Positions 2,836-19,591 are shown, counted from the stretch's first letter. The stretch is DNA of 32,000 bases from Trichlorobacter lovleyi SZ (GCF_000020385.1 NC_010814.1:600001-632000), one strand, 5' to 3'. A program made the numbers and translations. The notes: a model not told the origin generated them from the sequence alone.

Positions 2836-3795
2836 ATGCCAACCACGACACGCCACCCCAACCAGCTTGATACAGAAGAAGCGCTGGCATTATTGAAACA
2901 ACTGGTCCTGCTGGATGGGCCGGGTTCAGCCAACCTGTCGCGCCTGCAGGTGATGCAACTGCTCTGTGCCCGTAAACGTGCCCTTGCTGCTGCTGATCAC
3001 TCCTTTGATACGCTGCTGTTTGAACTGGGCAAGCAGCTGGATGAACAGATCCGGGATGGCGCCCCTCTGGCAATCAAAAAACGCTTTACCCTGCTGACCG
3101 ACTACTTTCACAAGCTGGAACTGGCCAGCGGCCACCTGAACCACCTGGCCTTCATGGGCAGTTACCAGCTGGATGTCGAGCTGCTGGTGGAACTGAAGCA
3201 CGACATGGAGTGGTTTGAGGAGATCGAGGCCGGTCTGTTCAGCCGTCTGATGGTGGATGATCTGCTCAAGAGCCAGCTGCTGGACAGCTTCGGCCGCCGC
3301 CGGGTCAAGCTGCTGGTGGATGGCCTGGCGCAGATTCAGACCGTCAGGACCCAGAAAAACGACATGAAATTCTTTGATCTGCAGGCGGTGCAGGGGATTA
3401 TCAGCCGTCTACAGCAGCTGGAAAAGGAAGAGCGGCTCTTCATGCTGCTGGCGGAGATCGTGGCGGAACAATCCAGGCTGAATCAGGCCGCCATGAGCAC
3501 CCCCCAGGGGCGGGAGGTGATCCGGCGGGTTACCACCATTGAACTGCGCCAGCGCCACGGGGTGGAGGGTGATATACCGGATGAGCTGTTTCAGAAGGCC
3601 TTTGAACTGGTCAAACTGGAGGCGATCTATTCCAATGCCATCCTGCCGCAGGTGGTACGGGGCAATAGCGCCCTGCGGCAGGATTTCATCAAAAAATCAG
3701 GGCTGGATCTGTTCTACATTGAAGATTTAGAAGATCAGTACTGCAGGCGTAACGGCATTGATCCTGCGTTGATACGGGAGCTGCGGGAACAATAG
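2836..3795 (+). CDS. Hypothetical protein, predicted all-alpha (Leu/Glu/Gln-rich), no recognisable motif
   Basis: 319-aa ORF beginning 6 nt after the upstream stop. Composition matches the neighbouring genes. I recognise no family. Confidence 0.6.
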   Translation: MPTTTRHPNQLDTEEALALLKQLVLLDGPGSANLSRLQVMQLLCARKRALAAADHSFDTLLFELGKQLDEQIRDGAPLAIKKRFTLLTDYFHKLELASGHLNHLAFMGSYQLDVELLVELKHDMEWFEEIEAGLFSRLMVDDLLKSQLLDSFGRRRVKLLVDGLAQIQTVRTQKNDMKFFDLQAVQGIISRLQQLEKEERLFMLLAEIVAEQSRLNQAAMSTPQGREVIRRVTTIELRQRHGVEGDIPDELFQKAFELVKLEAIYSNAILPQVVRGNSALRQDFIKKSGLDLFYIEDLEDQYCRRNGIDPALIRELREQ

Positions 3796-3893: not shown

Positions 3894-4175
3894 ATGATTG
3901 TTTCATTTCATGACAGTGAAACCAGTAAAGTCTGGGAAGGTCAGTTCTCCCGCAAGCTGCCCCATGATATTCAGCAGGTGGCACGGCGTAAGTTGAGGAT
4001 GCTTAACAACGCTGGTCGGGTGGATGATCTACGCATCCCTCCGCAAAACAGGCTTGAGAAGCTTTCTGGTGATCGTGAAGGACAGTGGAGTATTCGGATC
4101 AACGACCAATGGCGAGTCTGCTTCCTCTGGAATGAAGGAACGGCATCGCGTGTTGAGATATGTGATTATCACTGA
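3894..4175 (+). CDS. higB: HigB-type (RelE/ParE superfamily) toxin, plasmid-maintenance killer family
   Basis: 93 aa. MIVSFHD...LRIPPQNRLEKLSGDREGQWSIRINDQWRVCFLWNEG...VEICDYH matches the HigB-like toxin pattern, including the terminal DYH. The toxin-first gene order is typical of higBA. Confidence 0.85.
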   Translation: MIVSFHDSETSKVWEGQFSRKLPHDIQQVARRKLRMLNNAGRVDDLRIPPQNRLEKLSGDREGQWSIRINDQWRVCFLWNEGTASRVEICDYH

Positions 4176-4179
4176 GGTG

Positions 4180-4482
4180 ATGGATATGGCACAACTAGCA
4201 AACGTACATCCTGGGGAAGTCTTGAAAGAGGAATTTCTGGTACCTATGGGGATCAGCCAGTACCGGCTTGCCAAAGAGATCGGGGTGACGGAATCCAGAA
4301 TATCGGCCATTTGCCAAGGCAAACGGGCAGTCGGGGCGGATACTGCTGCCCGTCTTGCCCGTTTCTTTGGAACCACTGCCGCCTTCTGGCTTGGCCTTCA
4401 GGCTGATTATGATACAGAAGAGGTGGAGCGCAACCTGTCTGCCGAACTTGAAAAGATTCATCCCTGGAAGATGGCGGCGTAA
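4180..4482 (+). CDS. higA: HigA-type antitoxin, XRE-family HTH
   Basis: MDMAQLANVHPGEVLKEEFLVPMGISQYRLAKEIGVTESRISAICQGKRAVGADTAARLARFFGTTAAFWLGLQADYD is the classic HigA antidote pattern. ATG 4180 (or 4186) lies 5 nt after the higB stop. The longer 4024 start lies inside higB. Confidence 0.85.
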   Translation: MDMAQLANVHPGEVLKEEFLVPMGISQYRLAKEIGVTESRISAICQGKRAVGADTAARLARFFGTTAAFWLGLQADYDTEEVERNLSAELEKIHPWKMAA

Positions 4483-4811: not shown

Positions 4812-4835
4812 CAGAAAGTCAAGCCTGACCCCATG
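4812..4835. repeat. Left 24-bp inverted repeat
   Basis: CAGAAAGTCAAGCCTGACCCCATG. Its last 3 nt are the ATG of the truncated transposase ORF. Confidence 0.9.
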
Positions 4836-5387
4836 AGCTACAGTGGTTATACCGACTACGACTGGTATCAGGCCCTGATGGACAGCAGCATCTTCTTTGT
4901 AGCCCGGCTCAAGGACAATGCCTTGGTTGAGTACTTCAAGAAACGTCCGGGCCGCAGGTCACAGGGAGTGCTCACTGATCAGGAAATCAGCCTGAACGGG
5001 ATCAAGGGCAGCCTCCGCCTGGTTCATTTTGTTGCTGAAGATGGAAACGAGTACCGCTTCGTCACCAACGCAAACCACATTCCTGCTGCACTGGTGGCCG
5101 AATTGTACAAGGAACGCTGGCAGATTGAGCTGTTCTTCAAGTGGATCAAGCAGAACCTGAAGATCAAGGCGTTTTACGGCACCTCGGAGAATGCAGTGCT
5201 GACGCAGATCTGGATAGCACTCTGCGTGTACCTGGTACTGGCCTGGCTGAAGTTCATGTCAAAGATCACCATTACGATGCAGCAGATGTTACGGTTATTA
5301 CAGCTCAATCTGTTCGAACGAAGAGACCTGGAAAGCTTATTCAAACCAACGAAAGCATTGCCAAATCCTCAACTGGCGTTGCTTTGA
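4833..5387 (+). pseudogene. IS4-family DDE transposase, C-terminal ~184 aa only (5'-truncated)
   Basis: Contains YKERWQIELFFKWIK, an exact Y-x2-R-x3-E-x6-K (YREK) signature of IS4-family DDE_Tnp_1 transposases. The N-terminal half with the first two catalytic Asp residues is absent. Similarity begins near SGYTDYDW, directly after the left inverted repeat. Confidence 0.8.
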
Positions 5388-5403
5388 AAACTATGGGACA
5401 GCA

Positions 5404-5760
5404 GTGGGACAGCAGTGTCGATGGATATATCTTTTAGCAGCAGTCCCATTCTTTTTGTTTGCGCTGACTGGAATTGCATATGGTGCTTTTCTTTTATACT
5501 TCCTGCCAGCTCTGCTTTGTGTGGTCCAGTTTATACGTCCGACAATTTTTCTTTGGGCAACAATTCTTGGAATGTTTACCTGTGGTTCAGTTGCCTACCT
5601 GTTTGAAACGGGAAAAGACCTTTTAGGAATAATAGCTGGAGAAAGAGATAAAATTTTTCTAAACGCTGCAGACTCGTCTGTATTTACTCTACTACTTGTA
5701 GTTTTAATTTCAATTTCAGTAGCACTAATTCGGTGGAAGCCGGAACTCAGAATAAAGTAA
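5404..5760 (+). CDS. Small hypothetical membrane protein (about 4 hydrophobic helices)
   Basis: 118-aa ORF with a GTG start in clearly AT-richer DNA. Hydrophobic segments are LLAAVPFFLFALTGIAYGAFLLYFLPALLCVV, IFLWATILGMFTCGSVAYLF and VFTLLLVVLISISVALI. No SD-like sequence or family was recognised. Confidence 0.35.
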   Translation: MGQQCRWIYLLAAVPFFLFALTGIAYGAFLLYFLPALLCVVQFIRPTIFLWATILGMFTCGSVAYLFETGKDLLGIIAGERDKIFLNAADSSVFTLLLVVLISISVALIRWKPELRIK

Positions 5761-5787
5761 AAGTCAAAAGCGATATAACTAGAAAGA

Positions 5788-5815
5788 AACACCTGCCCAA
5801 AACCCGGCAGGTGTT
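5788..5815. terminator. Possible bidirectional intrinsic terminator
   Basis: Perfect 10-bp stem AACACCTGCC / GGCAGGTGTT with an 8-nt loop. It is followed by TTCTTTCT on the minus strand (downstream of the FRG gene) and by a weaker TCTTCCTCT on the plus strand. Confidence 0.5.
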
Positions 5816-5842
5816 CTTCCTCTACGTTGGATCAAGAGGAGT

Positions 5843-5866
5843 GCATGGGGTCAGGCTTGATTTTCT
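5843..5866. repeat. Right 24-bp inverted repeat
   Basis: CATGGGGTCAGGCTTGATTTTCTG, the reverse complement of the left copy with one mismatch (4818/5860). Confidence 0.9.
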
Positions 5867-5955
5867 GCTTTTCAAAACTGATCACCAGGGAATAGAAACC
5901 AGAGATACTTCCCGTATTAAAAGGTTAGCTGCCTCTCAAGCTACAATCCCCACCC

Positions 5956-6741
5956 TCAGCGAGGACTGTAGTGTCGTTTCAGCCAGCGGCTTAAACCATC
6001 CAGGCCGGGAAACAGCACCCGTTCGGTGATGTTGGCCTGGTCAAGTTTGTCGCGGATCTCCCATTTTAAGGCAGCCGGTATGATGATCTTGCGGCCGGTT
6101 TCAGGATGGTTGGCCAGCCAGCTGTCCAGCGCCATGCCGGGGGAGGTCATGACCGAGCAGAAGGCAAACTGGTTGACGATCCGGTCATCAATGGAGGGCG
6201 GCTCGAAAAACAGGGCAACGTCATCCCGGGCAATGCCATCCAGCTCGGACAATGAGCTGATCACTTCCGTCAACATCTCTACGGTCAGTACATTCGCGCC
6301 TTCCTGCTCAAGTTTGTGACGCAATACGTCAGGTAATAACTGGTGGGCCTTGACGTAATTCACGGCCCAGACCACCCCGTCTATATCGCTCTTCTCAATG
6401 TTGGCCGTGGCAAAGTGCATGGCGATAAAGGGAGAGTAGGTCCAGTCCAGCAGACGGGTCGGCAGGCCGTAGTGCTGGGCCACCGAGAGCCAGTGCCAGA
6501 TCGAGTCCCGCTCCACCACCCGCTGATGGGCGTATTTCTTGAAGTTGCGCAACAGGTGGTGTTCCAGCTCGGCATAGGGGCCGCCCAGCCGCATCAGGGT
6601 GGTCTCAAGGCGGTAGCTGACATCGGACAGCCCCCTGAAGGCGAAACGTGAGCGGTAGCGCCCCAGATCCTCGTTCCACGAATCGGCAAACAGGGCCTGC
6701 TGCAGTTCATCCCAGGAGTGGACGGTGATGGTTGCGAGCAT
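5956..6741 (-). CDS. FRG-domain protein (uncharacterised family)
   Basis: 261 aa with RFAFRGLSD (the eponymous FRG motif), AQHYGLPTRLLDWTYSPFIAMHFA and DDRIVNQFAF blocks typical of the FRG domain. The start lies 4 nt after the mgsA stop. Confidence 0.75.
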   Translation of the reverse strand: MLATITVHSWDELQQALFADSWNEDLGRYRSRFAFRGLSDVSYRLETTLMRLGGPYAELEHHLLRNFKKYAHQRVVERDSIWHWLSVAQHYGLPTRLLDWTYSPFIAMHFATANIEKSDIDGVVWAVNYVKAHQLLPDVLRHKLEQEGANVLTVEMLTEVISSLSELDGIARDDVALFFEPPSIDDRIVNQFAFCSVMTSPGMALDSWLANHPETGRKIIIPAALKWEIRDKLDQANITERVLFPGLDGLSRWLKRHYSPR

Positions 6742-6745
6742 GGCG

Positions 6746-7213
6746 TCAGGCCTTGTTCTTCAGACGTTGCTTGTACTCCTCATAGTCCTGCATCAGACGT
6801 TCATAGGGGTCGTGCATCAGTGAGGAGGAGATCAGGAAGTCGGCGGTGGAGCGGTTGCAGGCCACCGGAATATTCCAGACCACCGCTATCCGCAGCAGCG
6901 CCTTGACGTCCGGGTCGTGGGGCTGCGGCTCCAGCGGGTCCCAGAAGAAGATCACGAAGTCGATCTCCCCCTGGGATATCATGGCGCCGATCTGCTGGTC
7001 ACCCCCCAGCGGCCCGCTCTGCAGCCGGGTTACCTGCAGGTCAAGCGATTCCGCCAGCAGCGCCCCGGTGGTGCCGGTGGCGTACAGGTCATGTTCCACC
7101 AGGATGGCGCGGTTGTAACGGGCCCATTCGATCAGATCCCGTTTTTTGTTGTCATGGGCCACCAGGGCGATCCGTTTGCGTGACCCCATCTCGATGATGT
7201 TGTAAGAAGGCAT
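6746..7213 (-). CDS. mgsA: Methylglyoxal synthase
   Basis: KRIALVAHDNKKRDL...LYATGTTGALL...SGPLGGDQQIGAMISQGEIDFVIFFWDPLEPQPHDPDVKALLRIAVVWNIPVACNRSTADF is near-colinear with E. coli MgsA. ATG 7213 is preceded by GGAAAGGAAAA. The 7282 start would add 23 non-conserved residues. Confidence 0.9.
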   Translation of the reverse strand: MPSYNIIEMGSRKRIALVAHDNKKRDLIEWARYNRAILVEHDLYATGTTGALLAESLDLQVTRLQSGPLGGDQQIGAMISQGEIDFVIFFWDPLEPQPHDPDVKALLRIAVVWNIPVACNRSTADFLISSSLMHDPYERLMQDYEEYKQRLKNKA

Positions 7214-7309
7214 GCTGTTTTCCTTTCCGGGCACAGGGGCTCTCGGTGCTGTCGCGGTAGCTCCGTTGCGGTAACAGTACACCTTTTCGCTGACCGGTTC
7301 CAGTGGCAG

Positions 7310-9514
7310 TTACCGCTTTGCCAGCCAGATTTCAACCCGGTTGTTGCGCTGCCTGCCCTCTTTGGTACTGTTGTCGGCCACCGGCAGGCTTGAGCCGAAC
7401 CCTTCAGCCGCTGCCACCATGATGCCGCGAGAACGCAGTTCCTGGGCCACCTGACCAACCCGCTGGTGGGAAAGTGCCAGGCTGCTGTGGGGATCGCTGC
7501 TGGCATCGGTGAAGCTGAACAGCAGCAACTGGCGTCCCTGCAGCTCTTTGGTTGAGAGCGCCCGCACCAGCCGGTCCAGGTCGCGATAGGCCTTGTTGTC
7601 AAGCTGGCCGTCGGCGGTGAATTTGACGTTGAGCGAGAGGCGTTCCGCACTGCTTGCCAGCATGCGGTAACGCTCAGGGGCATTGGCAGGGATGGAGGAG
7701 TTGCCCATCCGCACTGAAAGCGGCACAAAGCCGTTTTTTTCCACGATGGCCTGTCCTTCAGGGGAGAGGGCAAATTCGACAAAATCCCTGATCTTCTGGT
7801 TTTTGGGCTGTCCCGGTGTGTAGAGGTAGAGACGGCGGGCCAGACCGTAGTCTTCGGTGGCAACGGTAAAGGGGGTCGGCAGGATCGGCTGGGCACCACC
7901 GCTGATGGCCACCGCCTTGGAGGATTTGACGTAGGGCAGGCCGATGAAGCCGATGCCGTTGGGGTCGCTGGAGACATCCCGTGAGAGCTTGACGCTGTCC
8001 TCGAAGCGCTTGGCCTCTTTGACCAGTTTTTCCTTGTGCAGCACCAGGCTCTTGAAGGTGTCGAAGGTGCCTGATTTGTCATCACGGGCATAGACATGCA
8101 CCGGCGCAGCCTTGGCAGCGCTGTTCAGCTGCTTCCATTCAGGGATCTTGCCGGTGAAGAGCCCCTGGGTATCGGCCATGGTCAGGGTTGCAACCGGGTT
8201 GGTGCTGTTGACGATGACCGCCACTCCGTCCAGGGCCAGGACATGCTCGTTGGCGCGGGAGGTCATGTTCCCCAGCAGCGACAGCCGCTTGACCTCGTCA
8301 TCCTTGATCCTGCGGGATGACATGCCGATGTCGCAGGCGTTGGCCTGCAACCCTTCAAAGGCGGTGGTGGAGCCGTGGGCCTTGATCTCCACCGCCCGGT
8401 TACGGCGTCCCTCCATGATTCCTTCCACCAGCTGTTCTTCGTGGTTTTTGCCCGGTACCCGCCGGATACGGACCGCCCCCTGCTTTTTGAGAAACTCCTC
8501 GGCCAGCGCGGGGGCCAGTTCTGCGCCGATGGTGTTGGAACCCTGCAGCTTCAGGATGATGTCGTAGGAGTTGATCCAGTGGTAGTAGTAGCCGCCGCCG
8601 GTTGCCAGCAGCAGGGCGCTCACCAGCGATGACATCACCAGGCCGCGGCGGCGCCTGAGCCAGGAGTCGGCAATCCCTTCGGCCGGTGCCTTGGGCAGCA
8701 GGGCGACCCGGTGCGCCTCAAGGGCGGCCAGGAACTCGACGCAGCTCTGGTAGCGGTTGGCCGGGTCCTTTTCCAGGGCCTTGTGGACGATGGCTGCCAG
8801 CTCTTCATGGGTATCCGGCGCAAAGCTCCTGATATCCGGGATGGTGCTGTCAAACTGGTTCATCAGGGTATCGACCGCGGATTCTTCGCTGAACGGCAGC
8901 CTGCCGGCCAGCATGTTGTACAGGATCAGCCCCACGGCGTAGATGTCGCTCTGGGGGGTCACGGTAAAGGGGTTCAGGATCTGCTCCGGGCTCATGAAGG
9001 CGGCCTCGCCTCCCTGACCAACCTCCTGCAGGTCTTCGCCGTACTTCAGCAGCGCCACCCCGAAGTCGGAGATCTTCAGCCCGCCGTTGCGGTCCAGCAG
9101 GATGATCGCGGTGGTCAGGCCACGGTGGATCACCCCTTTGTCATGGGCGAAGCGCAGCCCCTGCAGCAGCCGTACCGCATAGTGCAGGGCAATCTGTTGC
9201 GGAAAGGGACCATTATGTTCGATCATCCGGTCCAGGGCAGCGCCGTTATAGTATTCCATCACCAGCCAGAACCCGCTGTTGTGCTCAAAGAAGTCGGTGG
9301 CCTGCAGGATGTTGGGATGCACCATCCCGGCCAGCAGCTTGGCCTCGTTATAGAACCGCTCCCGGTATGATTCGGTGCCCGGCAGCTTCGGGGTCAGGGA
9401 TTTCAGCAGGAAACGCTTGCCCAGCAGGATATGTTCGGCCATCAGCAACGCCCCTTTGCCGTAGGGGGCCGCCCCTTCGATGCGATAGTGATACAGCATG
9501 GTTCCCTTTTCCAT
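7310..9514 (-). CDS. Hanks-type Ser/Thr kinase-like (predicted pseudokinase) - TM - PstS-like periplasmic binding domain - OmpA-like domain
   Basis: 734 aa.
- Kinase fold, aa ~6-265: FLLK, NEAKLL, DFG and SPE are present, but the catalytic loop reads HRGLTTAI instead of HRDLKPxN.
- TM segment, aa ~291-314.
- PBP_like_2/PstS-type domain, aa ~320-600: GSNT, GSTTA and R-x3-SGT (ARDDKSGTF).
- OmpA-C-like end: GFGSSLPVADNSTKEGRQRNNRVEIWL. Confidence 0.85.
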   Translation of the reverse strand: MEKGTMLYHYRIEGAAPYGKGALLMAEHILLGKRFLLKSLTPKLPGTESYRERFYNEAKLLAGMVHPNILQATDFFEHNSGFWLVMEYYNGAALDRMIEHNGPFPQQIALHYAVRLLQGLRFAHDKGVIHRGLTTAIILLDRNGGLKISDFGVALLKYGEDLQEVGQGGEAAFMSPEQILNPFTVTPQSDIYAVGLILYNMLAGRLPFSEESAVDTLMNQFDSTIPDIRSFAPDTHEELAAIVHKALEKDPANRYQSCVEFLAALEAHRVALLPKAPAEGIADSWLRRRRGLVMSSLVSALLLATGGGYYYHWINSYDIILKLQGSNTIGAELAPALAEEFLKKQGAVRIRRVPGKNHEEQLVEGIMEGRRNRAVEIKAHGSTTAFEGLQANACDIGMSSRRIKDDEVKRLSLLGNMTSRANEHVLALDGVAVIVNSTNPVATLTMADTQGLFTGKIPEWKQLNSAAKAAPVHVYARDDKSGTFDTFKSLVLHKEKLVKEAKRFEDSVKLSRDVSSDPNGIGFIGLPYVKSSKAVAISGGAQPILPTPFTVATEDYGLARRLYLYTPGQPKNQKIRDFVEFALSPEGQAIVEKNGFVPLSVRMGNSSIPANAPERYRMLASSAERLSLNVKFTADGQLDNKAYRDLDRLVRALSTKELQGRQLLLFSFTDASSDPHSSLALSHQRVGQVAQELRSRGIMVAAAEGFGSSLPVADNSTKEGRQRNNRVEIWLAKR

Positions 9515-9543
9515 TACTCAGAACTCCTTGCTCTTGTAGTTGG

Positions 9544-12500
9544 TTATGCTTCTGCCGGCAGGGTGCCAAGCACCACTCGGGGCGCCTCGTAACTGTCTTT
9601 AACCGCCACCGACGAGCCCCTGACCTTCTTGGCGGTCTTTTTGACCTCGCTGGCCATGGAGGCCAGCTGGGCATAGGAGCTGATCTGCAGCTGCCCGGTG
9701 CTGATCACCGCCACTGAAAGCGACAGCAGGCTGAAGGTCTCCAGCTCACCCTTGCGGTTGAAGGAGGTGTAACAGCCCTTGGCGTAGTCGCTGGAACCGT
9801 GCAGCAGCGGCAGCCGTGCGTCAAATTCGGCGATCACCTGGCGGGATAGGGCGGCGGCGTAGCCGGGGCCGGTGATGATGATGAAGTCGTCACCGCCGAT
9901 ATGTCCGCAGAAGTTCCTGGCCTGCTTGCCCTGCAGCAGCTCATCGGCGTGAAATTTCAGGATATCCCCCACCACCTGGATCACCATGTCGCCCCGCTCA
10001 AAGCCGTAGAAGTCGTTGTATGGCTTGAAGTGGTCAATATCGATGTAGGCGATGTCGAACGGCATGCCGGACTCCAGCCGCCGGGTGGTCTCACGCTGGA
10101 TACTCTCGTTGCCCGGCAGGCCGGTCAGCGGGTTGGCCCCCTTGGCCAGCTTCAGGTTCAGGGCGGTGATCGCCTCCACCAGGGTGCGGACATCCAGAAT
10201 GCCCCGGTAGACGCCGCGCCTGGCAACGCAGATGTTCTCCAGCCGCATGGTGCCAAAGTTGCCGTGCAGCGCCTGGGCCGCCTCTTCAATACTGGCGTCA
10301 GACTCAATCACCAGCGGCACCGGCTGCATCAGGTCGCGTACCTTTTTGGAGTGGTTGATATGAAATGCGTAGCCGATCCGCCCCACAATCTGCTCTTCGA
10401 TGAACTCGGAGCGGTTCAGTACTCCCGCTACCCGGTGCTGATCCACCACCGGCAGTACCTGCAGCCGTTTGTCGGTCTGAAATCGCTCCAGGGCGGTGTT
10501 CAGACGGTCAGCCGGTCTGAGCGGCTCGATATGCAGGGTTATGTCGGCAACGGTCTGCAGCGAGCGATCATCCTCTTCCTGGGGTACTGGCATGGCTGCC
10601 GGAGGGGTGAGTTCCTGCCCGATCTGTTCAGGCTGCGGGTCAGACGGCTCACCGGCAAGCAGTTGCGCGCCATTCAGCAAAAAGAGTTCAAATGCCTCAC
10701 GCTGCATCGGTTTGCCAAAGTAGTAGCCCTGCATGGTGTCGCAGCCAAGTTCCTGCAACAGTTGGTGCTGGCTGGGGGTCTCCACCCCTTCTGCCGTTAC
10801 CTTGAGGTGCAGTGAGCGGGCCATGGCAATGATGGCAACCACAATCGCCCGGTCATCGGGGTTGCTGTCCAGCTCGTTCACAAAGGAACGGTCAATCTTG
10901 ATCCGATCCACCGGCAGGTGTTTCAGATAGGTCAGGGACGAATAGCCGGTGCCAAAGTCGTCAATGGCCAGTTTAACCCCCAGCTCCTTCAGCCTGAAGA
11001 TCTGCTCGGTGTTTTCATTGGAATGTTCCATCAAGAGCGATTCGGTCAGCTCACAGCAGAGTGCATCAGGTGGCAACCCCACCATCTGCAGTTGACGGGC
11101 GACCCGCTCTGCAAACTGGCGGTCCTTTAGCTGGCGGGTCGAGACATTGACGGCAACAGTCAGGTGGGGATAGCCCTGTTCCCGCCACTGTTTACAGTTC
11201 TGCAGGGCCAGTTCCAGCATCCGGTCTCCCAGCTGCACAATGGCGCCGTTGGCCTCAGCCACCGGAATAAACTTGTCCGGCCCCACCAGCCCCAGGGTGG
11301 GGTGCTGCCAACGGGCCAGTGCTTCCATCCCGACCAGTTTTTTGCCGTCCTGGCTGAACAACGGCTGATAGCAGGCAAAGAACTCCCCGGCCCGTAAACC
11401 CCGCAGGATGCTTGATTCAATCTGCATCTGTTCCCTGACCGCCTGGTTCATCTCTTCTGCATAGAACTTGAAGCCGCTTTCACCGGCAATCGACTTGGAC
11501 TGCGCCTGGAGCTGCGCCAGGTGGGCATGCTGCAGCAGCACCTCGCCGCTGCGTCCGTCACCGGGAAAGATGGCAATGCCGATATGGGCGTTCAGCTGAA
11601 ATTCGGCGTCATGCAGGCTGAACGGCTCATTGATGGCATCAAGCAGTTTGGTGATGACCGGCAGAATATCCCGTTCGCTGCCGCTCTTGGGCAGCAGGAT
11701 GCCGAATTCACCCTTCTGCAGCACCGCGAGGGTGTCGGTCTCGCGCAGGACATCCTGCAGCCGGTCGGCCACGCTGCGCAGCAGCTCGTCACAGTCGTCG
11801 CCACCCCGTGCGCTGATCGCACCGGGGCAGCGCCCCAGCACCAGCTTCAGCACCGACAGGGCCTGCTCTTCGCGGCTGCTGATGGCCAGCAGCTGGGCCA
11901 GACGGTCGCTGAGCAGCTTGTGGTTGGGCAGGCCGGTGATGGCGTCATAGCGGGTCAGCTCTTCCACCTTGCGGGCGGCCTGCTTCAGCAGGGTGATATC
12001 CTCCAGAAAGATGATGGTGCAGGAGTCTCCTTCAAACAGGATCCGGTGGGCAGAAATCGACCCGGTCAGCAGGGAGCCGTCCTGACGCCGCAGGGTGACC
12101 TCCAGTCCCTGAACCGCGCCGTTGCTGCGGATCTGACGGATCAGGTCCAGCCGTTCCGAACTGTGTTCCCAGAGCTTCAGGTCGCTGTCACTGTGTCCCA
12201 CAATGCTGGCAACCGCGTAGCCGGTCATAGCGGCAAAGCGCTGGTTGACCGACAGGATCCGGCGGTCCTGGTCCCGTACCACTGCAATACCGTTGGGAGA
12301 GGCATGAAAGGCCCTGATGATCAGCTCATGGGAGGATGAATCGTTTCGGGTAAAGCGCCGGATCAGCAGGTAGAGCATGGCCGCCGTGATCAGCAGCAGC
12401 CCGGCCCCTGCGGCAATATGTGTCAGGTATGACAGCCCTTCCGGCAGATTGAGTTGCCGTTCAAGCAGCCCGGCCGAGATGGTCCAGATGCCGCCGAACA

Positions 12501-12654
12501 GCAGGAAGGTGAGGGTGATGCTGCGGGCGGTCAGGGGCAAAACCCGGCCGAACAGCAGCAGCTTTGCCTGGCGGCCCGGTATGTTGGCCGGTTTGATAGC
12601 GTCATCCGGCAGCCACTGTCTTCCTGCTATCGGGTGCTGCGTAACGGTATGCAT
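9544..12654 (-). CDS. Membrane-anchored PAS - degenerate GGDEF - EAL - CBS pair - GGDEF(GGDDF) c-di-GMP signalling protein
   Basis: 1036 aa with two N-terminal TM segments and a PAS domain (aa ~110-225).
- GGDEF-like domain 1 has QKGEF at aa 313-317 and lacks the DxDxFK block.
- The EAL domain carries all signatures: EAL 444-446, NVS, ELTES, DDFGTGYSSL, KIDRSF, AEGVET, QGYYFGKP.
- CBS pair, aa ~700-830.
- The C-terminal GGDEF has IDIDHFKPYNDFYGFERGD and GGDDF at aa 920-924. Confidence 0.9.
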   Translation of the reverse strand: MHTVTQHPIAGRQWLPDDAIKPANIPGRQAKLLLFGRVLPLTARSITLTFLLFGGIWTISAGLLERQLNLPEGLSYLTHIAAGAGLLLITAAMLYLLIRRFTRNDSSSHELIIRAFHASPNGIAVVRDQDRRILSVNQRFAAMTGYAVASIVGHSDSDLKLWEHSSERLDLIRQIRSNGAVQGLEVTLRRQDGSLLTGSISAHRILFEGDSCTIIFLEDITLLKQAARKVEELTRYDAITGLPNHKLLSDRLAQLLAISSREEQALSVLKLVLGRCPGAISARGGDDCDELLRSVADRLQDVLRETDTLAVLQKGEFGILLPKSGSERDILPVITKLLDAINEPFSLHDAEFQLNAHIGIAIFPGDGRSGEVLLQHAHLAQLQAQSKSIAGESGFKFYAEEMNQAVREQMQIESSILRGLRAGEFFACYQPLFSQDGKKLVGMEALARWQHPTLGLVGPDKFIPVAEANGAIVQLGDRMLELALQNCKQWREQGYPHLTVAVNVSTRQLKDRQFAERVARQLQMVGLPPDALCCELTESLLMEHSNENTEQIFRLKELGVKLAIDDFGTGYSSLTYLKHLPVDRIKIDRSFVNELDSNPDDRAIVVAIIAMARSLHLKVTAEGVETPSQHQLLQELGCDTMQGYYFGKPMQREAFELFLLNGAQLLAGEPSDPQPEQIGQELTPPAAMPVPQEEDDRSLQTVADITLHIEPLRPADRLNTALERFQTDKRLQVLPVVDQHRVAGVLNRSEFIEEQIVGRIGYAFHINHSKKVRDLMQPVPLVIESDASIEEAAQALHGNFGTMRLENICVARRGVYRGILDVRTLVEAITALNLKLAKGANPLTGLPGNESIQRETTRRLESGMPFDIAYIDIDHFKPYNDFYGFERGDMVIQVVGDILKFHADELLQGKQARNFCGHIGGDDFIIITGPGYAAALSRQVIAEFDARLPLLHGSSDYAKGCYTSFNRKGELETFSLLSLSVAVISTGQLQISSYAQLASMASEVKKTAKKVRGSSVAVKDSYEAPRVVLGTLPAEA

Positions 12655-12709
12655 GGTTGGTTCCTCTATCAGGCTGCTGGAAAACTACTGCGGAGCCCGT
12701 CAGCCGCTG

Positions 12710-14953
12710 TTACGCTGCTGCGGCAGTTCTGATCGGGATACTGTGCAGCGCATCAAAGACCGGGCTGCGGTACTGTTCCGGCGCTGTTGGTGCCGCTGCG
12801 GCAGGCAGCGGGTCGTCATACCGGAACTGGTTCAGCTCGGCCTGCAGTTCCTGCGAGATGGCAGCCAGGTGGATCGATTCATCCGAGATTGCCGCGGCAG
12901 CCTGCAGGGTTTCCCGCAGGGTGGTGTCAATGGCCAGGATGTCGTTGCTGATCTGGCTGGAGGTGGCCGACAGCTCCTCAGTGGCGGTGGCGATCTGCTG
13001 GGTCATCCCCTGCAGTCCGTCAACACTTTCAACAATGCTGGCCAGGGCGCAACCGGCCTCTTCAGAAAACTCTACCCCCCGGGTGACCCGTGTCAGGCTC
13101 TGCTGCATCGCTTCCACGGCCTTGCCGGTGTCCCCCTGGATCGCCGACAGCTTCCCGGCAATCTCGACCGTGGCCTGCTCGGCACGGCGGGAGAGGTTGC
13201 GGACCTCGTTGGCCACCACGGCAAAGCCAAGGCCGTGTTCTCCGGCCCGGGCCGCTTCAATGGCGGCGTTCAGCGCCAGCAGGCCGGTCTGGTCCGTGAT
13301 ATCCCTGATGGTCTCAAGTATCTCGCCGATCTGTTGTGAACGCTCGTGCAGGCTGGCTATGGTGGTTTGGGATTCCCCGACCGATTCGGCAATCGCCTGA
13401 ACCTCGGCAATGGTACGGTTCACCACTGCGGCACCGTTTTGGGCGGTCTGCCGGGCCATGCCGGCGGAACCGGCGATCCTGGCCGTGTGCTGTGCCACAT
13501 CGGCCACGGTCTGGGACAGCTGACTGCCTGCCGTGGCAACCTGGCTGACCCGTTCGCTCTGTTCCTGAACCTGGCAGGTGATCAGGTTGACGGTGCCGGA
13601 AAGCTCCTGCGAGGTGCCGGCCAGGGTGCCGGCGGTTCCGGCGATCGCCCCGACAATCCGCCTGAAGGAGCTGATCAGGCTGTTAAAGGCGTTGATGGAC
13701 TGGCCGATCTCATCGTTGTTCAGGACCGTCACGCTGCGACGCAGGTCACGGCTCTCGGCGATCTCGCCGATGGTGCTCTGCAGCTGGCCGAGCGGCTTGC
13801 GGATGATCATGGCCACCAGCCAGTTCAGGGCCAGCACCAGGATGCCGATCAGCAGTGCGCCCCCCAGCATGATCGCAGTCCGCCGGTGCGACGTGGCATC
13901 CATCGCCTCGACAAAGTTCTGCTGTTCGCTGGTGGTGGCAGTAACCTGTGCCTCGCTCTGGCGGGCCTGTTCAAGGGTAACCTGCCTGATCTGCGCCACG
14001 GTCGCCTCCACCTGTCCCATGCTGGCCAGCACATTGCGCTGGGCTGCGGCGATCCGCCTGATCGCCGCGCCTGCCCGGCCGGCACCGCTGCCGATCTGTT
14101 CAATGGCATCCCTGACCACGCCACCGCTTTTGACCGACATGACTTCAGCTTCAGCCTGCTTCAGGCTCTTGCCGATTCTGGCCTGTACGGTGCCGATCTC
14201 TCCGGCCAGCCTGTCCAGCTCTGCTGCCGAGCTGCTCAGCATGATCATGCGGGCCTTGGCGTCCAGCAGGCGCAGGTCGATATGGATGCTGTCCACCGCC
14301 TCAACCGCTGCCATGACCCGTTTGTTGATCTCCATGTCGTTTTCAACACCGTTGCGGTAGTTCTGCACCTTTTCCGCCAGGCTGGCATTTTCGGCCAGCC
14401 CGGTGACCGAACCGCCCTTCAGCGCCTGTTCAATATCCCTTGAAGAGGATTGGGCCCGCCGCGCAGCCGTGCTGCGTAGTCCGGAGATGACATCGCGAAT
14501 CCCCTCCAGTGACTTTTCCGCCGCTCTGATGGAACCGCTCAGATTGGTTGCCTCGGCCTTGAAGATCTCCAGGCTGGTGAACTTGTCCTGCAATGCCGCC
14601 GCCACCTGCTGCTCAAGGGTTGCAAAGGCGGAGACATCCAGCTGCACCCCTTTCAGCTCCTGGATCTCCTTGCTCAGTTGATCAAGCCTTTTGCGGCGTT
14701 CCTCCATTACAGCGGTCTGCTTCTGTAATTCCCGTGGGTCTTCCAGCATGCCGGTTTGCAGCAGGTCACCGGAGAGCCGCTCCACGGTCTGCTGAAACTG
14801 CAGCATCTTGACCTGCAGCGGGGTGGAGCGGGTGGTCAGCTCCCGGATAGTGCCCTGGAATCCTGCGATGGTGTAGTAGCCCAGCAGCACGACAGCAGCA
14901 AAGCCGACAAAGGTTATCAGGCTGTTGATCAATAGTTTCCGGCGGATGGTCAT
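12710..14953 (-). CDS. Methyl-accepting chemotaxis protein with a large helical periplasmic sensor region and HAMP
   Basis: 747 aa. TM1 is aa ~7-30, followed by a ~340-aa helical ectodomain and TM2 at ~365-390. A HAMP domain follows, then the conserved hairpin LALNAAIEAARAGEHGLGFAVVANEVRNLSRRAEQAT. Confidence 0.92.
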   Translation of the reverse strand: MTIRRKLLINSLITFVGFAAVVLLGYYTIAGFQGTIRELTTRSTPLQVKMLQFQQTVERLSGDLLQTGMLEDPRELQKQTAVMEERRKRLDQLSKEIQELKGVQLDVSAFATLEQQVAAALQDKFTSLEIFKAEATNLSGSIRAAEKSLEGIRDVISGLRSTAARRAQSSSRDIEQALKGGSVTGLAENASLAEKVQNYRNGVENDMEINKRVMAAVEAVDSIHIDLRLLDAKARMIMLSSSAAELDRLAGEIGTVQARIGKSLKQAEAEVMSVKSGGVVRDAIEQIGSGAGRAGAAIRRIAAAQRNVLASMGQVEATVAQIRQVTLEQARQSEAQVTATTSEQQNFVEAMDATSHRRTAIMLGGALLIGILVLALNWLVAMIIRKPLGQLQSTIGEIAESRDLRRSVTVLNNDEIGQSINAFNSLISSFRRIVGAIAGTAGTLAGTSQELSGTVNLITCQVQEQSERVSQVATAGSQLSQTVADVAQHTARIAGSAGMARQTAQNGAAVVNRTIAEVQAIAESVGESQTTIASLHERSQQIGEILETIRDITDQTGLLALNAAIEAARAGEHGLGFAVVANEVRNLSRRAEQATVEIAGKLSAIQGDTGKAVEAMQQSLTRVTRGVEFSEEAGCALASIVESVDGLQGMTQQIATATEELSATSSQISNDILAIDTTLRETLQAAAAISDESIHLAAISQELQAELNQFRYDDPLPAAAAPTAPEQYRSPVFDALHSIPIRTAAAA

Positions 14954-14982
14954 GGCACGTCTTCCTCTCTGTCTATGGCGAA

Positions 14983-15016
14983 ACAGAACAGTAACAGGCG
15001 ACTGTTACCGTTCTGT
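14983..15016. repeat. 15-bp-arm inverted repeat in the MCP / zinc-ribbon divergent region
   Basis: ACAGAACAGTAACAG - GCGA - CTGTTACCGTTCTGT, with 14 of 15 positions complementary. It lies 30-63 nt upstream of the MCP start codon. Confidence 0.85.
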
Positions 15017-15181
15017 GACGGCCGGGAAAAATGTCTGTGGCGACCCGGATAAGCTGTGTTCGGGGCCTCCGGTAGTTTGTTGCAGACTCTTTGGAAACCC
15101 GACACCCAGTTGTCATTTTTTGGCGCTATGGTCTGGCAAACGATAAGTACATGCCAATCAAGAGGCAGGAGGACGACTGCT

Positions 15182-15373
15182 ATGAGAACACGAACCCACG
15201 ACGACTACTATGCCTGGACCTGTGACTGGTGCGACAGCGAGAACCGGACCCTCTGGGTGCGGGTGGCTCACGGTGATGTGGCCTGCGGAGCCTGCCACCG
15301 CACCACCAGCTTTCCGACCTCAAGTGTTGCCCTGACTGCCGGGCAGCAGCCGATGCTGAGCGGCCAGTGTTAG
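15182..15373 (+). CDS. Small zinc-ribbon protein (CxxC...CxxC)
   Basis: 63 aa, MRTRTHDDYYAWTCDWCDSENRTLWVRVAHGDVACGACHRTT... AGGAGG lies 9 nt upstream of ATG 15182. Confidence 0.55.
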   Translation: MRTRTHDDYYAWTCDWCDSENRTLWVRVAHGDVACGACHRTTSFPTSSVALTAGQQPMLSGQC

Positions 15374-15384
15374 AGAGGTGGACC

Positions 15385-15480
15385 ATGTTTCTGTTACGGA
15401 TTTTGAGCATGAAGCGGGAGTTTGACCTGATTGACCAGCAACTTGAACGTTTACGCCGTTTGGCGGGCCGTAAGGCCTGA
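15385..15480 (+). CDS. 31-codon ORF (MFLLRILSMKREFDLIDQQLERLRRLAGRKA), possible micro-protein
   Basis: Not in the supplied track because it is under 60 aa. ATG 15385 is preceded by GAGAGGTG. The ORF fills the gap between the zinc-ribbon ORF and the hydrolase gene. Its basic amphipathic helix is the only feature. Confidence 0.3.
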   Translation: MFLLRILSMKREFDLIDQQLERLRRLAGRKA

Positions 15481-15497
15481 GATCGGGGAGATCATCC

Positions 15498-16580
15498 ATG
15501 AAGCAGTTGTTGAGCAGACACCTTCAGCCGTTAACTGAGCGCCATCCGGCCCTGATGAACATGGCCACCGCCACCGCCGGGTTTTTGCGTTCGATAGCCA
15601 TCAAGCCGTACAGGCAGCGCCACCGTCCACGGGAGCTGGCGCTGTGGGAGCGTTATCACAGTCTGCATGCCGTGCGTTGTCAGGTCTATCGTGAAAAGTC
15701 TGCCGGTGGACGTCCTACCATTGTGGTGGCCGGTTTTGTGCCGGATGCCACCGAGGTGGTGGAGTTTCAACGTCCGCTGCTGCGCAGCCACGGCAGCATC
15801 TATTACCTCAACTACCCGCGTAACGGTTTCAGCCACGAACTGTTTGAGGCGCAGCTGGCCGACCTGATTGATGAGCTGAGTCTGAAGGGAGAGCGGCCGG
15901 TGCTGATGGGGGTCAGCTTCGGCGCCGGACTGGTGGTTGATTTTCTGCGGCGGGCCTCGGAACAGCTGCATGACCGTCTGCGCGGCCTGCTGCTGGTCAG
16001 CCCGGTACTCTGCACCGCCGACCTGATCCGGCCCGACAACCAGCGCAACGGCGGGGTTCGGATGCTGGAGTCAAACCTGCGTAAGATATTGAAGGCCGAC
16101 CCAAATGATGAGAGCGATCTGAACCGGCAGCTGGAGCGGGCGCGGCGCTGTTTTCAGGCCCTGTTTGAGGCAGGGGCGGAAAACCGCAGCCTGACCACCC
16201 GCCACCTGGCCATCCGGCAGCGGATATTCGGGGTGCTTGAGCATACCTCCAACCTTGGCGGCTATCAGCGGGTGCTGGCCTTGCGCAGCTTTGCCGAACC
16301 GGCTGCAGGCAGGACCATCTTTGGCGGACCGACCCTGATCATGCTGGCCGAGGATGAGCAGAGCATTCTGGTGCCGGGATCGCCCACCCTGCAACTATGT
16401 GCCGATCATGCCGCCCTGCGTTCGGTCTTCCCCGAAGCCAGGGCCTGTCTGATCGCCTCAAACAATGATGCCGACCCGGTGGCCCATGCCTCGCTGATCT
16501 TTCATCAGCACTGCTACAATCCGCGCATGGAGCAGTGGTTGCAGAAGCTGCATAACCAGCCGCTCCTGGCGGTGGTGTGA
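15498..16580 (+). CDS. Alpha/beta-fold hydrolase
   Basis: 360 aa with the nucleophile elbow G-V-S-F-G (VLMGVSFGAG). An upstream GGGGAG serves as the ribosome-binding site. Confidence 0.7.
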   Translation: MKQLLSRHLQPLTERHPALMNMATATAGFLRSIAIKPYRQRHRPRELALWERYHSLHAVRCQVYREKSAGGRPTIVVAGFVPDATEVVEFQRPLLRSHGSIYYLNYPRNGFSHELFEAQLADLIDELSLKGERPVLMGVSFGAGLVVDFLRRASEQLHDRLRGLLLVSPVLCTADLIRPDNQRNGGVRMLESNLRKILKADPNDESDLNRQLERARRCFQALFEAGAENRSLTTRHLAIRQRIFGVLEHTSNLGGYQRVLALRSFAEPAAGRTIFGGPTLIMLAEDEQSILVPGSPTLQLCADHAALRSVFPEARACLIASNNDADPVAHASLIFHQHCYNPRMEQWLQKLHNQPLLAVV

Positions 16581-16582
16581 TA

Positions 16583-16702
16583 CCAATTCCAACTCAAGGC
16601 GATATCATCGTTGGCTCGTCTTCTACTCCTCGACGTACTGTCGTGTACGCCTGCGTCGTCGAATTCCTCGCCGCCTTGATCTCATCCTTGATTTGAAATT
16701 GG
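16583..16702. repeat. Long imperfect palindromic intergenic element (class with a CGACGTACTG...TGTACG core)
   Basis: Outer arms 16583-16599 and 16686-16702 are complementary at 15 of 17 positions. The core CGACGTACTG (16631-16640) plus TGTACG (16644-16649) recurs at 24142-24159. Confidence 0.8.
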
Positions 16703-16815
16703 CGACTACCTGATATATGCCGCCTACCTGCCCGGTATGTCTCGGTCGCTGCGCTCCGGGCGCCTGGTATACGGCCTTCCTCATACGTTTTCAGTTTCAG
16801 TTCAAAGGAGCACCA

Positions 16816-18402
16816 TTGAAGTTTCCTGTTTCCCTGTTGTCTCTGCCGCTGCGCGCCGCCGCCGATATCCGTGCCCGGCGCTTTTTACGCAAAGATCCGC
16901 TGGGCAGCCAGCGTGAACTGCTGCCCCGCCTGCTGCAGAGGGCGGCAAAAACCCGCTTTGGCCGCGAGTACGGCTTCAATTCTCTGGCCAGCCTGCCCTT
17001 TGAAGTCTGCTATCAGCAGTTTCAACAGCAGGTGCCGATCCGTACCTATCGTCAGTTCTGGGATGACTGGTTTGCAGCCTGCCTGACAACCACCCCGCAG
17101 GGACAGCAGTTGCGGCTGCAGGATCAGAGCTGGCCCGGACTGATCCCCTGGTTCTGCGAGACCTCCGGCACCACGGCGCCAACCAAGTTCATTCCCTTTA
17201 CCCATGAGATGTTCAGGATGAACCAGCGGGCAGCCCTGGATATGCTCTGCTGTTACCTGGCAGCTGAACCGGGCAGCAGGGTGCCGGAGGGCAAGATCCT
17301 CTACATGGCCGGCAGCACCCGGCTCAAGCAGATGGGGCCGGGTGTGCTGGCCGGTGACATGAGTGCCATTACCCTGCAGCAGCGGCCCGCCTGGCTGAAC
17401 CCGTTTGTAGAACCACAGGAGCCGCTGACCTCGGCCCCGTGGGATCAGCGGCTGGACGGCATGGCCCGGCTGCTGCTGGCAGACCGGAAGATACGGATCA
17501 TCTCCGGGGTGCCGCCCTGGATTTTACTGCTGCTGAAGCAGGTGGAATCCCTGGCCGGTCGTCCGGTGCGTGAGGCGTTGCCCAGTCTGGAACTGATCAT
17601 TCACGGTGGTACCAGCATGGCCCCCTATGCTGCAGAATACCAACGGCTGCTCCCTTCTGGCGGCCCCCGCTTTCTGGAACTGCTGCCTTCATCCGAGGCG
17701 TTCATGGGCTTTCAGGTGCAGGGTGAGGCAACCATGCGGTTGACACCGTTTTACGGCTCGTTTTTCGAGTTTGTGCCGATTGAACAGCTGGATGAGAGCG
17801 GCGCACCGCTTTCTGACGCCCAGGCTGTACCGCTGGCCGGGGTGGTGACCGGTCAGCGGTACGCCGTGATTCTTTCCACCTGCTCCGGGCTGTGGCGCTA
17901 CCATATCGGCGATACCCTGCGCTTTCTGGATGCCGACCGGTTCCATTTTGAATTTACCGGCCGGGATAAGTTTCTGGATCGCTTTGAGGAGAAGGTGACC
18001 CAGACCGAGGTGGAACAGGCGGTGGCTATGCTGAACAAGCGGCACGACGGTCTGGTGCGGGAGTTCATGGTGGGGGCAGATATTGGCGGTCGTTGCCACC
18101 ACTGGGTACTGGCCTGCCGGGGCAGTGCGCTGCTGCCGGACCAGGCCTCACGTTTGCTGGACGACCAGCTGCGTAGCGCCAATGCCGATTATGACACCTT
18201 CCGGCAACAGGGAAGGATTAACAGTCCCCGTGTACTGCTGGTGTCGGAACAGCAGATCTATGACTGGTCGGCAGAGGTGCGTGGCAAGCTGGGCGGCCAG
18301 AGCAAGATCCCCCACATTGATCCGACCCTGACCGGTGAGCTGGTCAAAAGCCTGTCCGGCTATGCCTGTAACAATAGTTTCCAATCTTTTGCCTCCCCGT
18401 AA
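16816..18402 (+). CDS. GH3-family (acyl-adenylate-forming amido-synthetase-like) protein
   Basis: FCETSGTTAPTKFIPFT (GH3 nucleotide-binding motif) and GLWRYHIGDTLRF are present. TTG 16816, preceded by AAAGGAG at 6-nt spacing, is preferred over ATG 16717, whose extra 33 aa look non-native. Confidence 0.75.
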   Translation: MKFPVSLLSLPLRAAADIRARRFLRKDPLGSQRELLPRLLQRAAKTRFGREYGFNSLASLPFEVCYQQFQQQVPIRTYRQFWDDWFAACLTTTPQGQQLRLQDQSWPGLIPWFCETSGTTAPTKFIPFTHEMFRMNQRAALDMLCCYLAAEPGSRVPEGKILYMAGSTRLKQMGPGVLAGDMSAITLQQRPAWLNPFVEPQEPLTSAPWDQRLDGMARLLLADRKIRIISGVPPWILLLLKQVESLAGRPVREALPSLELIIHGGTSMAPYAAEYQRLLPSGGPRFLELLPSSEAFMGFQVQGEATMRLTPFYGSFFEFVPIEQLDESGAPLSDAQAVPLAGVVTGQRYAVILSTCSGLWRYHIGDTLRFLDADRFHFEFTGRDKFLDRFEEKVTQTEVEQAVAMLNKRHDGLVREFMVGADIGGRCHHWVLACRGSALLPDQASRLLDDQLRSANADYDTFRQQGRINSPRVLLVSEQQIYDWSAEVRGKLGGQSKIPHIDPTLTGELVKSLSGYACNNSFQSFASP

Positions 18403-18407
18403 CATGT

Positions 18408-18425
18408 CTGTCACAAAACTCGTAT
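18408..18425 (+). promoter_or_regulatory. Candidate Pho box upstream of pstS
   Basis: CTGTCAC-AAAA-CTCGTAT compared with the enterobacterial consensus CTGTCAT-A(A/T)A(T/A)-CTGT(C/A)A(C/T). The first half-site matches 6 of 7 and the second 4 of 7. It lies 61 nt upstream of the pstS ATG. Confidence 0.3.
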
Positions 18426-18485
18426 ATGGTGGCAATTAAGCAACACACACCTGAAAATACCAACAATACCAAGGAGGATGTACCA

Positions 18486-19451: not shown

Positions 19452-19463
19452 AAACGGCCTGAA

Positions 19464-19542: not shown

Positions 19543-19548
19543 CCCTAG

Positions 19549-19579: not shown

Positions 19580-19591
19580 TCAGGATTCTCC

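Follow-up and report, generated by a model that had tools for sequence, protein, structure and literature searches.

Within a 32,000-nucleotide window of the genome of Trichlorobacter (formerly Geobacter) lovleyi SZ (NC_010814.1:600001-632000), five genes on the minus strand between positions 5956 and 14953 encode, in the direction of transcription, a methyl-accepting chemotaxis protein (MCP), a membrane protein of cyclic di-GMP (c-di-GMP) turnover, a receptor that joins a pseudokinase to PstS-like and OmpA-like domains, the methylglyoxal synthase MgsA and an FRG protein. This string is read here, with somewhat better than even confidence and from sequence comparison, as a Pho-box-controlled accessory operon of the Trichlorobacter clade that would bundle low-phosphate behavioural responses. 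The original prediction for this DNA had proposed that all five genes form one phosphate-coupling unit. Its phosphate part is supported by a Pho-box-like promoter, by the pseudokinase/PstS-domain protein and by phosphate-themed neighbours; its fixed five-gene unit did not hold, and the FRG gene appears to be a passenger.

The MCP gene (12710-14953; 747 aa) was assigned by Pfam and translation, the PAS-GGDEF-EAL-CBS-GGDEF gene (9544-12654; 1036 aa) by Pfam, NCBIfam and motif reading, the pseudokinase-PstS-OmpA gene (7310-9514; 734 aa; hereafter the kinase gene) by Pfam and alignments, and the FRG gene (5956-6741; 261 aa) by its Pfam FRG match, all on the minus strand. For mgsA (6746-7213, minus strand; 155 aa) the start was placed at ATG 7213, which is preceded by the ribosome binding site (RBS) GGAAAGGA and at which the alignment with relatives begins; a longer open reading frame (ORF) covers 6746-7282. 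Because mgsA starts at ATG 7213, the third gap measures 96 nt, and the ORF coordinates confirm five co-directional genes separated by 55, 29, 96 (27 with the longer mgsA ORF) and 4 nt, as had been predicted. The annotation is corrected for two start codons, that of mgsA (7213) and that of pstS (18486). The claim that no terminator interrupts the string was also borne out: no minus-strand terminator-like site was found within 5956-14953, and the sole one in 5300-15600 is an intrinsic-terminator-like hairpin at the end of the string (5787-5816, minus strand) with 11 pairs, a U-rich tail and a fold z of -2.6. Three intergenic regions folded no better than shuffled sequences, no Rfam family was found in the 32-kb window and thus no riboswitch or leader in the gaps, and the number of promoter-like sites inside the string was at chance level.

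A Pho-box-like site, which the original prediction had suggested looking for upstream of 14953, is present there, is conserved in relatives and has its motif in common with the pstS promoter. A Pho box consists of two 7-bp direct repeats with a 4-bp separation, and it replaces the -35 element about 10 bp upstream of the -10 element. Upstream of the string, the minus strand reads CCGTCAC-AGAA-CGGTAAC (15021-15004), which amounts to two 7-bp direct repeats 4 bp apart with an 11-bp period. The Pho-box-like promoter of the string (14988-15019, minus strand) is composed of GTCAC-AGAACG-GTAAC (15019-15004), a 9-nt spacer and the -10-like hexamer TACTGT (14993-14988). Relative to the MCP start (14953), the repeat and the -10 occupy the stretch 35-66 nt upstream, and the predicted 5′-untranslated region downstream of TACTGT has about 27 nt, including the RBS. 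This layout matches that of the pstS Pho box (18399-18428, plus strand; GTAAC-ATGTCT-GTCAC, 8 nt, -10 TATATG), which was taken as the reference motif and is conserved in three relatives (L003, L006, L015; L-numbers denote the loci of relatives). The putative lineage motif GTHAC-N6-GTHAC was generalised from the pstS promoter motif; it has two matches in 32 kb, at pstS and at 15019-15004 on the MCP strand, against 0.11 expected. Additionally, CTGT-N7-CTGT occurs six times (0.93 expected), with two matches in the MCP upstream region, one per strand.

For nine lineages, namely the window and eight relatives, the DNA that precedes the first string gene was aligned (alignment A3). Of the 15 invariant columns, seven coincide with GxxAC, with GT and with the first and last T of the -10, and the box and the -10 are kept in all nine lineages irrespective of the gene that comes first. 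The box stands before this MCP in the window, L003, L086, L083 and L010, before a different MCP of 578 aa in L085, before the GGDEF/EAL gene in L081 and L014, and before a deletion remnant in L006. Farther away, the kinase gene of L017/L018 is preceded by a perfect match to the box, and that of L015 and L016 by one-mismatch boxes of the same architecture (TTGnCAC-CCCS-ATGTAAC-N8-TGCTATSTT). Perfect matches were also detected upstream of the MCP gene in L011 and in the MCP upstream region of L015, and the MCP upstream regions of L015 and L017 have a one-mismatch box with the same layout in common. The strength of the Pho-box case, as read from these alignments, is the shared architecture together with the conserved footprint and not any single match.

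The 734-aa receptor is a bitopic protein with a cytoplasmic kinase fold, one transmembrane (TM) helix and periplasmic PstS-like and OmpA-like domains (Pfam Pkinase-PBP_like_2-OmpA). The Pkinase match reaches 134 bits, and the beta3 Lys (K38) and the alphaC Glu (E57) are invariant in the receptor alignment. In the catalytic loop the receptor reads vihrGlTtaIilld where the active kinase 4EQM reads ivhrDiKpqNilid, so that HRD has become HRG, Lys has become Thr and Asn has become Ile; the Gly-rich loop GxGxxG is degenerate as well (IEGAAPYGKGALL versus GSGGQGAVY in acidobacterial homologues). In a 15-sequence alignment, the HRD Asp is missing from every member from Geobacteraceae/Desulfuromonadaceae, and the acidobacterial and myxobacterial homologues, which have the same ectodomain, are canonical. 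The designation of the domain as a pseudokinase is therefore justified at the level of sequence, and the original prediction of a pseudokinase with a PstS-type domain was correct, given that the catalytic Asp, Lys and Asn are lost and the PstS motifs are intact. Since the catalytic residues have been lost in the Geobacteraceae clade, any output of the receptor must be non-catalytic. The protein resembles Hanks-type Ser/Thr kinases of the PknB/Stk1 family in its cytoplasmic kinase fold, single TM helix and extracytoplasmic ligand-binding domain, but differs from them in that its Geobacteraceae clade is without the catalytic Asp, Lys, Asn and Gly-rich loop. PADLOC matches of the kinase domain to PD-T4-6, Mad6 and PglW were judged to reflect generic kinase-fold similarity and were not taken as defence evidence for the receptor.

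The PstS domain scores 93.5 bits with PBP_like_2 (cut-off 27) and 186 bits with TIGR02136, just below the cut-off of 206.6, and it matches solved PstS proteins with E-values down to 9e-25, including 4OMB of Pseudomonas aeruginosa. The segments GSNT, SSR and RDDKSGT, which correspond to the motifs GSxT, SSR and RDDxSGT for binding of inorganic phosphate (Pi), are invariant across the 15 receptor homologues, and the domain is by these motifs an intact putative phosphate-binding domain. The OmpA-like peptidoglycan-binding domain (Pfam 37.1 bits, cut-off 27.2) has invariant N724, R726, V727 and E728 (NxRVE). Over 1,500 homologues from Desulfuromonadales, Acidobacteriota, Myxococcota and Verrucomicrobiota have the fused architecture; a literature search for a PstS-OmpA-(pseudo)kinase protein found nothing relevant. 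PstS-OmpA proteins without a kinase domain exist among the homologue loci. The genes that precede those of such kinase-less proteins (loci L020, L024, L027, L036, L042, L064 and L077, there as gene -1, as well as L043, L045, L056 and L063) encode a tubulin-like Tubulin_2 protein of about 1000 aa, mostly in Acidobacteriota, or, in Desulfuromonas and Geopsychrobacteraceae, a DUF4388 protein. The PstS-OmpA gene of Desulfopila (L041) follows a PilJ-PAS-GGDEF-EAL gene at a distance of 44 nt.

According to Pfam (4HB_MCP/HAMP/MCPsignal) and translation, the MCP has two TM helices, an all-helical periplasmic sensor of about 325 aa, a HAMP domain and an MCP signalling domain. The AlphaFold (AF2) model of the sensor shows six helices in a two-long four-short pattern with a predicted local distance difference test score (pLDDT) of 69; it was computed from a shallow alignment of 8 sequences, the homologue search having given 7 proteins. 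Comparison of the sensor with the PDB by sequence gave nothing meaningful. By structure, the best PDB match of the model is the TorS sensor in the TorS-TorT complex (3O1H; E = 3.7e-4, TMt 0.75, identity ~12%), and a TMt of 0.57-0.59 was obtained with the HBM domain of McpS. The sensor thus models as a double four-helix bundle of the TorS/HBM type, a class that reads periplasmic binding proteins. A partnership between the PstS domain and the MCP is plausible by analogy, because TorS and CtpL read their ligands via a periplasmic binding protein. CtpL, an HBM receptor, reads Pi-loaded PstS (PMC4926252; reviewed in PMC8050422). The MCP and the receptor are predicted to resemble CtpL-PstS of Pseudomonas aeruginosa in that the chemoreceptor would be linked to Pi starvation and has a sensor modelled as a double four-helix bundle, in that a high-affinity Pi-binding domain of the PstS type may serve as co-receptor, and in that both would be tied to the Pho system. 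The two systems differ in that the PstS-like domain is here fused to a TM helix, a pseudokinase and an OmpA-like anchor instead of being a free transporter subunit, and in that its gene adjoins the MCP gene, whereas the genes are unlinked in Pseudomonas. TorS-TorT, the best match of the MCP model, shares the fold class that senses ligand through a binding protein, but has a histidine kinase output instead of an MCP output and a different ligand, at only ~12% identity.

In the 1036-aa membrane protein, Pfam and translation give the order PAS, GGDEF, EAL, CBS and a C-terminal GGDEF-like domain. The first GGDEF domain is degenerate (QKGEF, with RxxD kept) and the C-terminal one reads GGDDF, so that the active-site motif GG[DE]EF is absent from both. 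All catalytic motifs of the EAL domain are present (EAL, NVS, ELTES, DDFGTGYSS, KIDRSF, EGVET and QGY; Pfam EAL 250.7 bits), and NCBIfam phosphodiesterase families match the protein, which is best predicted to be a c-di-GMP phosphodiesterase. In Pseudomonas fluorescens, RapA is a c-di-GMP phosphodiesterase of the Pho regulon (PMC3032545). Common to both would be an EAL phosphodiesterase that stands behind a low-Pi promoter and lowers c-di-GMP when Pi is scarce, which is a prediction for the T. lovleyi protein. Unlike RapA, the latter is a much larger membrane protein with a PAS-degenerate GGDEF-EAL-CBS-GGDEF-like architecture, and its gene stands together with those for an MCP and a PstS receptor.

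With the NCBIfam equivalog models of methylglyoxal synthase, PRK05234 and TIGR00160, the mgsA product scores 227 and 195 bits, above the respective cut-offs of 84 and 147. MgsA is inhibited by Pi. No relevant report of mgsA as part of a Pho regulon turned up in a literature search. Among relatives, mgsA follows the kinase gene at distances of 23 nt to about 436 nt, a spread caused by inserted repeats, with 23-33 nt in L007, L010 and L086. Just before mgsA, the window and L001, L002, L003 and L006 share a conserved block, CTGCYACTGGAAYC..GGTGTACTGT. A sigma-54 promoter was considered upstream of mgsA and rejected, as the spacing is off by one. Genes for PhoX, Ppx-GppA and CHAD proteins occur near mgsA in L082, L083, L086 and L087; the PhoX/mgsA intergenic region of L082 contains no convincing box.

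The FRG protein matches Pfam FRG with 106 bits and, over nearly its full length (residues 23-259), the PADLOC model PDLC04938 of the single-gene defence candidate PDC-S15 (E = 7.4e-45). According to PMC9503650, Frg belongs to the ADP-ribosyltransferase (ART) superfamily and is proposed to act as a NADase effector against viruses. The near-full-length model match constitutes the likeness to the PDC-S15/Frg clade; the difference is that the FRG gene is here translationally coupled to a housekeeping-type mgsA and does not reside in a defence island. The mgsA-FRG pair is conserved in L001-L003, L006, L007, L014 and L085, and the FRG gene is absent from L010, L086, L081 and L083, in which the rest of the string persists. 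In the window it lies in a low-GC patch, next to a HigB/HigA-like toxin-antitoxin pair (HigBA, 3894-4482) and a DDE transposase remnant (4833-5387). Since the gene is absent where the string persists, matches a defence family and has HigBA and transposase neighbours, it was read as a later insertion, probably an accessory defence-type gene and a passenger of the string. The GC content at 5001-6000 is 0.45, and HigBA and the transposase remnant separate the FRG gene from the TIGR04442-family gene. The transposase piece is also found in L001 and is absent in T. thiogenes (L003).

Gene order was followed in the best 80 of 510 candidate stretches obtained from a synteny search seeded with the kinase-PstS-OmpA protein. 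The full five-gene string was found in T. thiogenes (L003) and in L085. The first three genes are present in L008 before the contig ends, and the first four, without FRG, in L086. The MCP gene is missing in L014, the MCP gene and most of the GGDEF/EAL gene in L006, and the MCP and kinase genes in L081. In L083 the kinase gene has been deleted, and its last ~15 codons (..GRQRNKRVEVWVTKR*) remain at 6916-6968 between a LMWPc gene and mgsA. L010, which has no FRG gene, encodes a GGDEF/EAL protein with a terminal LMWPc domain, and L004 and L005 carry an extra GGDEF-EAL gene between the kinase gene and mgsA. In every Trichlorobacter-like locus the conserved part of the string ends with mgsA. Outside the clade, at 46-53% identity, the kinase gene adjoins a TIGR04442-family gene and usually an orthologous MCP gene, whose product has 41-44% identity over its full length and which is found in either orientation; mgsA and FRG are never beside it, and an EAL gene is close to it in a single case. 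None of the string partners is present in the loci from Acidobacteriota, Verrucomicrobiota and Myxococcota, and clustering of the neighbours of 73 PstS-OmpA loci revealed no universal partner. The conservation of the five genes as a unit, as originally envisaged, was thus not confirmed: the full string is restricted to Trichlorobacter-like genomes, single genes are lost or replaced, and the linkage of mgsA to the PstS protein ends with the clade. The conserved Geobacteraceae core is better described as the PstS-(pseudo)kinase receptor and the MCP, with GGDEF/EAL and mgsA as additions of the Trichlorobacter clade. In the window, the TIGR04442-family ORF (2836-3795, plus strand) is convergent to the string and matches the family model only in its C-terminal half (positions 331-607 of 608). 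Its product is helical without a TM helix; in L010-L018, no neighbour of the kinase gene is more constant than the homologue of this ORF.

The surroundings of the string are phosphate-themed. The divergent region between the MCP start and a plus-strand Zn-ribbon ORF at 15182 comprises 228 bp and contains a second Pho-box-like promoter (15101-15132, plus strand; GACAC-CCAGTT-GTCAT-N10-TATGGT), which has the same architecture as the pstS promoter and whose conservation is seen in the left part of alignment A3. It faces a previously unnoticed 63-aa Zn-ribbon ORF (CxxC...CxxC; 15182-15373), a 31-aa ORF (15386-15481), an OlsI-like alpha/beta-hydrolase gene (15498-16580) and a gene for an OlsH-like GH3 enzyme (16717-18402; OlsH model 346 bits, below the cut-off of 620), all on the plus strand. 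The two small ORFs are also called in L081, L085 and L086. OlsH and the alpha/beta-hydrolase OlsI make a phosphorus-free ornithine lipid (PMC12493201), and 15182-18402 is predicted to be a divergent operon for a phosphorus-free aminolipid. It is followed by pstS, pstC, pstA, pstB and phoU (18486-24920, plus strand). The start of pstS was placed at ATG 18486 (RBS AAGGAGG, signal peptide MLKKSVLALCATLC...), the mechanical start at ATG 18426 lying inside the promoter -10; with this start, pstS is about 9 kb from the kinase gene, in agreement with the distance of about 9 kb that had been given between the PstS-domain gene and pst-phoU. In L017 (6521-9670) and L018 (6545-9679), a gene for a 1049-aa alkaline phosphatase with a choice-of-anchor I domain is located directly upstream of the Pho-box-like site and the kinase gene. 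PstC (19592-21517; 641 aa), with an N-terminal extension of ~380 aa that gives faint WD40/beta-propeller-like matches, and PstA (21691-23283; 530 aa) are both much longer than usual. At 83-2829 on the plus strand, a gene for a GT4 glycosyltransferase with a weak match to GlcN-phosphatidylglycerol synthase overlaps one for an LGT-like membrane protein; homologues lie near the string in L003, L081 and L086, and these may be further lipid-remodelling genes of the neighbourhood. At 30604-31398 on the minus strand, draT (dinitrogenase reductase ADP-ribosyltransferase, 372 bits) adjoins a gene for a Crp/Fnr-type regulator (29881-30597).

Several observations weigh against the reading of the string as a Pho-controlled operon. 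Co-directional runs of five genes with short gaps are common in bacteria, and such a run alone is not more than chance gives. The carriers of the string belong mostly to one genus-level clade, so that its synteny is partly ancestry, and the repeated losses of MCP, kinase and GGDEF/EAL genes mean that none of them is obligatory. Inserted repeats of 210-436 nt separate the kinase gene from mgsA in L002, L003, L006, L014 and L085, the conserved block in the 96-nt gap of the window could be an internal promoter of mgsA, and mgsA homologues with 72-76% identity occur in unrelated contexts, for example after tilS-hpt-ftsH. Some of the insertions contain long GC-rich palindromes (L003). With regard to the promoter, the strict E. 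coli consensus CTGTCAT-N4-CTGTCAT gave 3 matches of at least 11/14 against 1.8 in shuffled sequences, none of them at pstS; as it was non-discriminating, the lineage motif from the pstS promoters was used in its place. This motif is frequent when relaxed to at least 9/10 positions (32 matches in the window), and single relaxed matches in distant loci are weak evidence. As for the chemoreceptor, Pfam HBM was not detected and 4HB_MCP_1 matched weakly, and the structural model of the sensor is of moderate confidence.

Taken together, the restriction to Trichlorobacter-like genomes, the loss and replacement of individual genes, the extra genes and repeats before mgsA, the other contexts of mgsA and the commonness of such runs are what would be expected if the genes were merely neighbours inherited together in one genus, with separate regulation and function and without any meaning of direction and gaps. 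We consider this somewhat unlikely, given that the Pho-box promoter stays before whichever gene comes first after deletions, that no terminator-like site lies within the string, that junctions are 23-33 nt or overlapping in several lineages and that the adjacency of kinase and MCP genes survives inversions in distant Geobacteraceae. A different doubt concerns the repeat upstream of the MCP gene, which might be the operator of a regulator other than PhoB, for instance a palindrome-binding repressor shared with the lipid operon, in which case the string would not be phosphate-controlled. The Pho-box-like element is indeed enclosed by an imperfect palindrome (14980-15019) with a 15-bp inverted repeat, which is unusual for the head-to-tail sites of PhoB, and it scores poorly with the strict E. 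coli consensus. At the pstS promoter, here and in L003, L006 and L015, half-sites, spacing and -10 distance are nevertheless the same, and the palindrome is largely lost in L081, L086, L014 and L010, where the direct repeat and the -10 persist; such an operator is quite improbable. Most improbable is the full model of the original prediction, in which all five proteins including FRG form one signalling unit and the PstS-pseudokinase senses Pi and controls c-di-GMP, taxis and the methylglyoxal bypass. The Pho box upstream, the tight spacing down to the 4-nt mgsA-FRG junction and the conservation of that pair in seven loci agree with it, but the FRG protein matches a defence candidate of a group proposed to be NADase effectors, its gene borders HigBA and a transposase remnant and is missing from four loci where the rest persists, and the kinase gene is dispensable in L081 and L083.

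The Pho-box-controlled accessory operon would operate as follows. Under Pi scarcity, phosphorylated PhoB would switch on both promoters of the 228-bp divergent region, which stand back to back. One of them would serve the OlsI/OlsH-like aminolipid genes, beside pstSCAB-phoU with its own box, and the other the genes for the MCP, the EAL phosphodiesterase, the PstS-pseudokinase-OmpA receptor and MgsA and, at the end, FRG. The MCP would mediate phosphate-related taxis and may read the Pi-loaded PstS-type domain, as in CtpL-PstS and TorS-TorT; this domain would be anchored both in the inner membrane and at the peptidoglycan. The EAL enzyme would lower c-di-GMP and favour motility over attachment, comparable to RapA, and the pseudokinase domain may act as a non-catalytic cytoplasmic output or scaffold. 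The Pi-inhibited MgsA, probably co-transcribed, would recycle Pi from dihydroxyacetone phosphate. FRG, inserted later as a defence-type gene and coupled to mgsA in translation, would have no role in the phosphate response. A bolder version, in which the peptidoglycan-tethered PstS-pseudokinase is a Pi-loaded co-receptor of the MCP as well as an allosteric partner of the phosphodiesterase, so that one Pho-induced operon couples Pi to taxis, c-di-GMP and Pi recycling by MgsA, is unlikely as things stand.

To our knowledge, Pho-controlled taxis (CtpL/CtpH) and Pho-controlled c-di-GMP turnover (RapA) are known only as separate systems of Pseudomonas. In the present case, which concerns an environmentally important metal- and organohalide-respiring group, a single conserved Pho-type promoter appears to precede both functions, together with methylglyoxal synthase and with an uncharacterised but widespread (pseudo)kinase-PstS-OmpA receptor architecture. 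The receptor moreover bears on the evolution of pseudokinases, as its catalytic residues were lost in Geobacteraceae and are retained by homologues in other phyla. If the reading is true, the string would provide a compact model of the behaviour of subsurface Geobacteraceae under phosphate limitation and a first functional handle on the PstS-OmpA receptor family.

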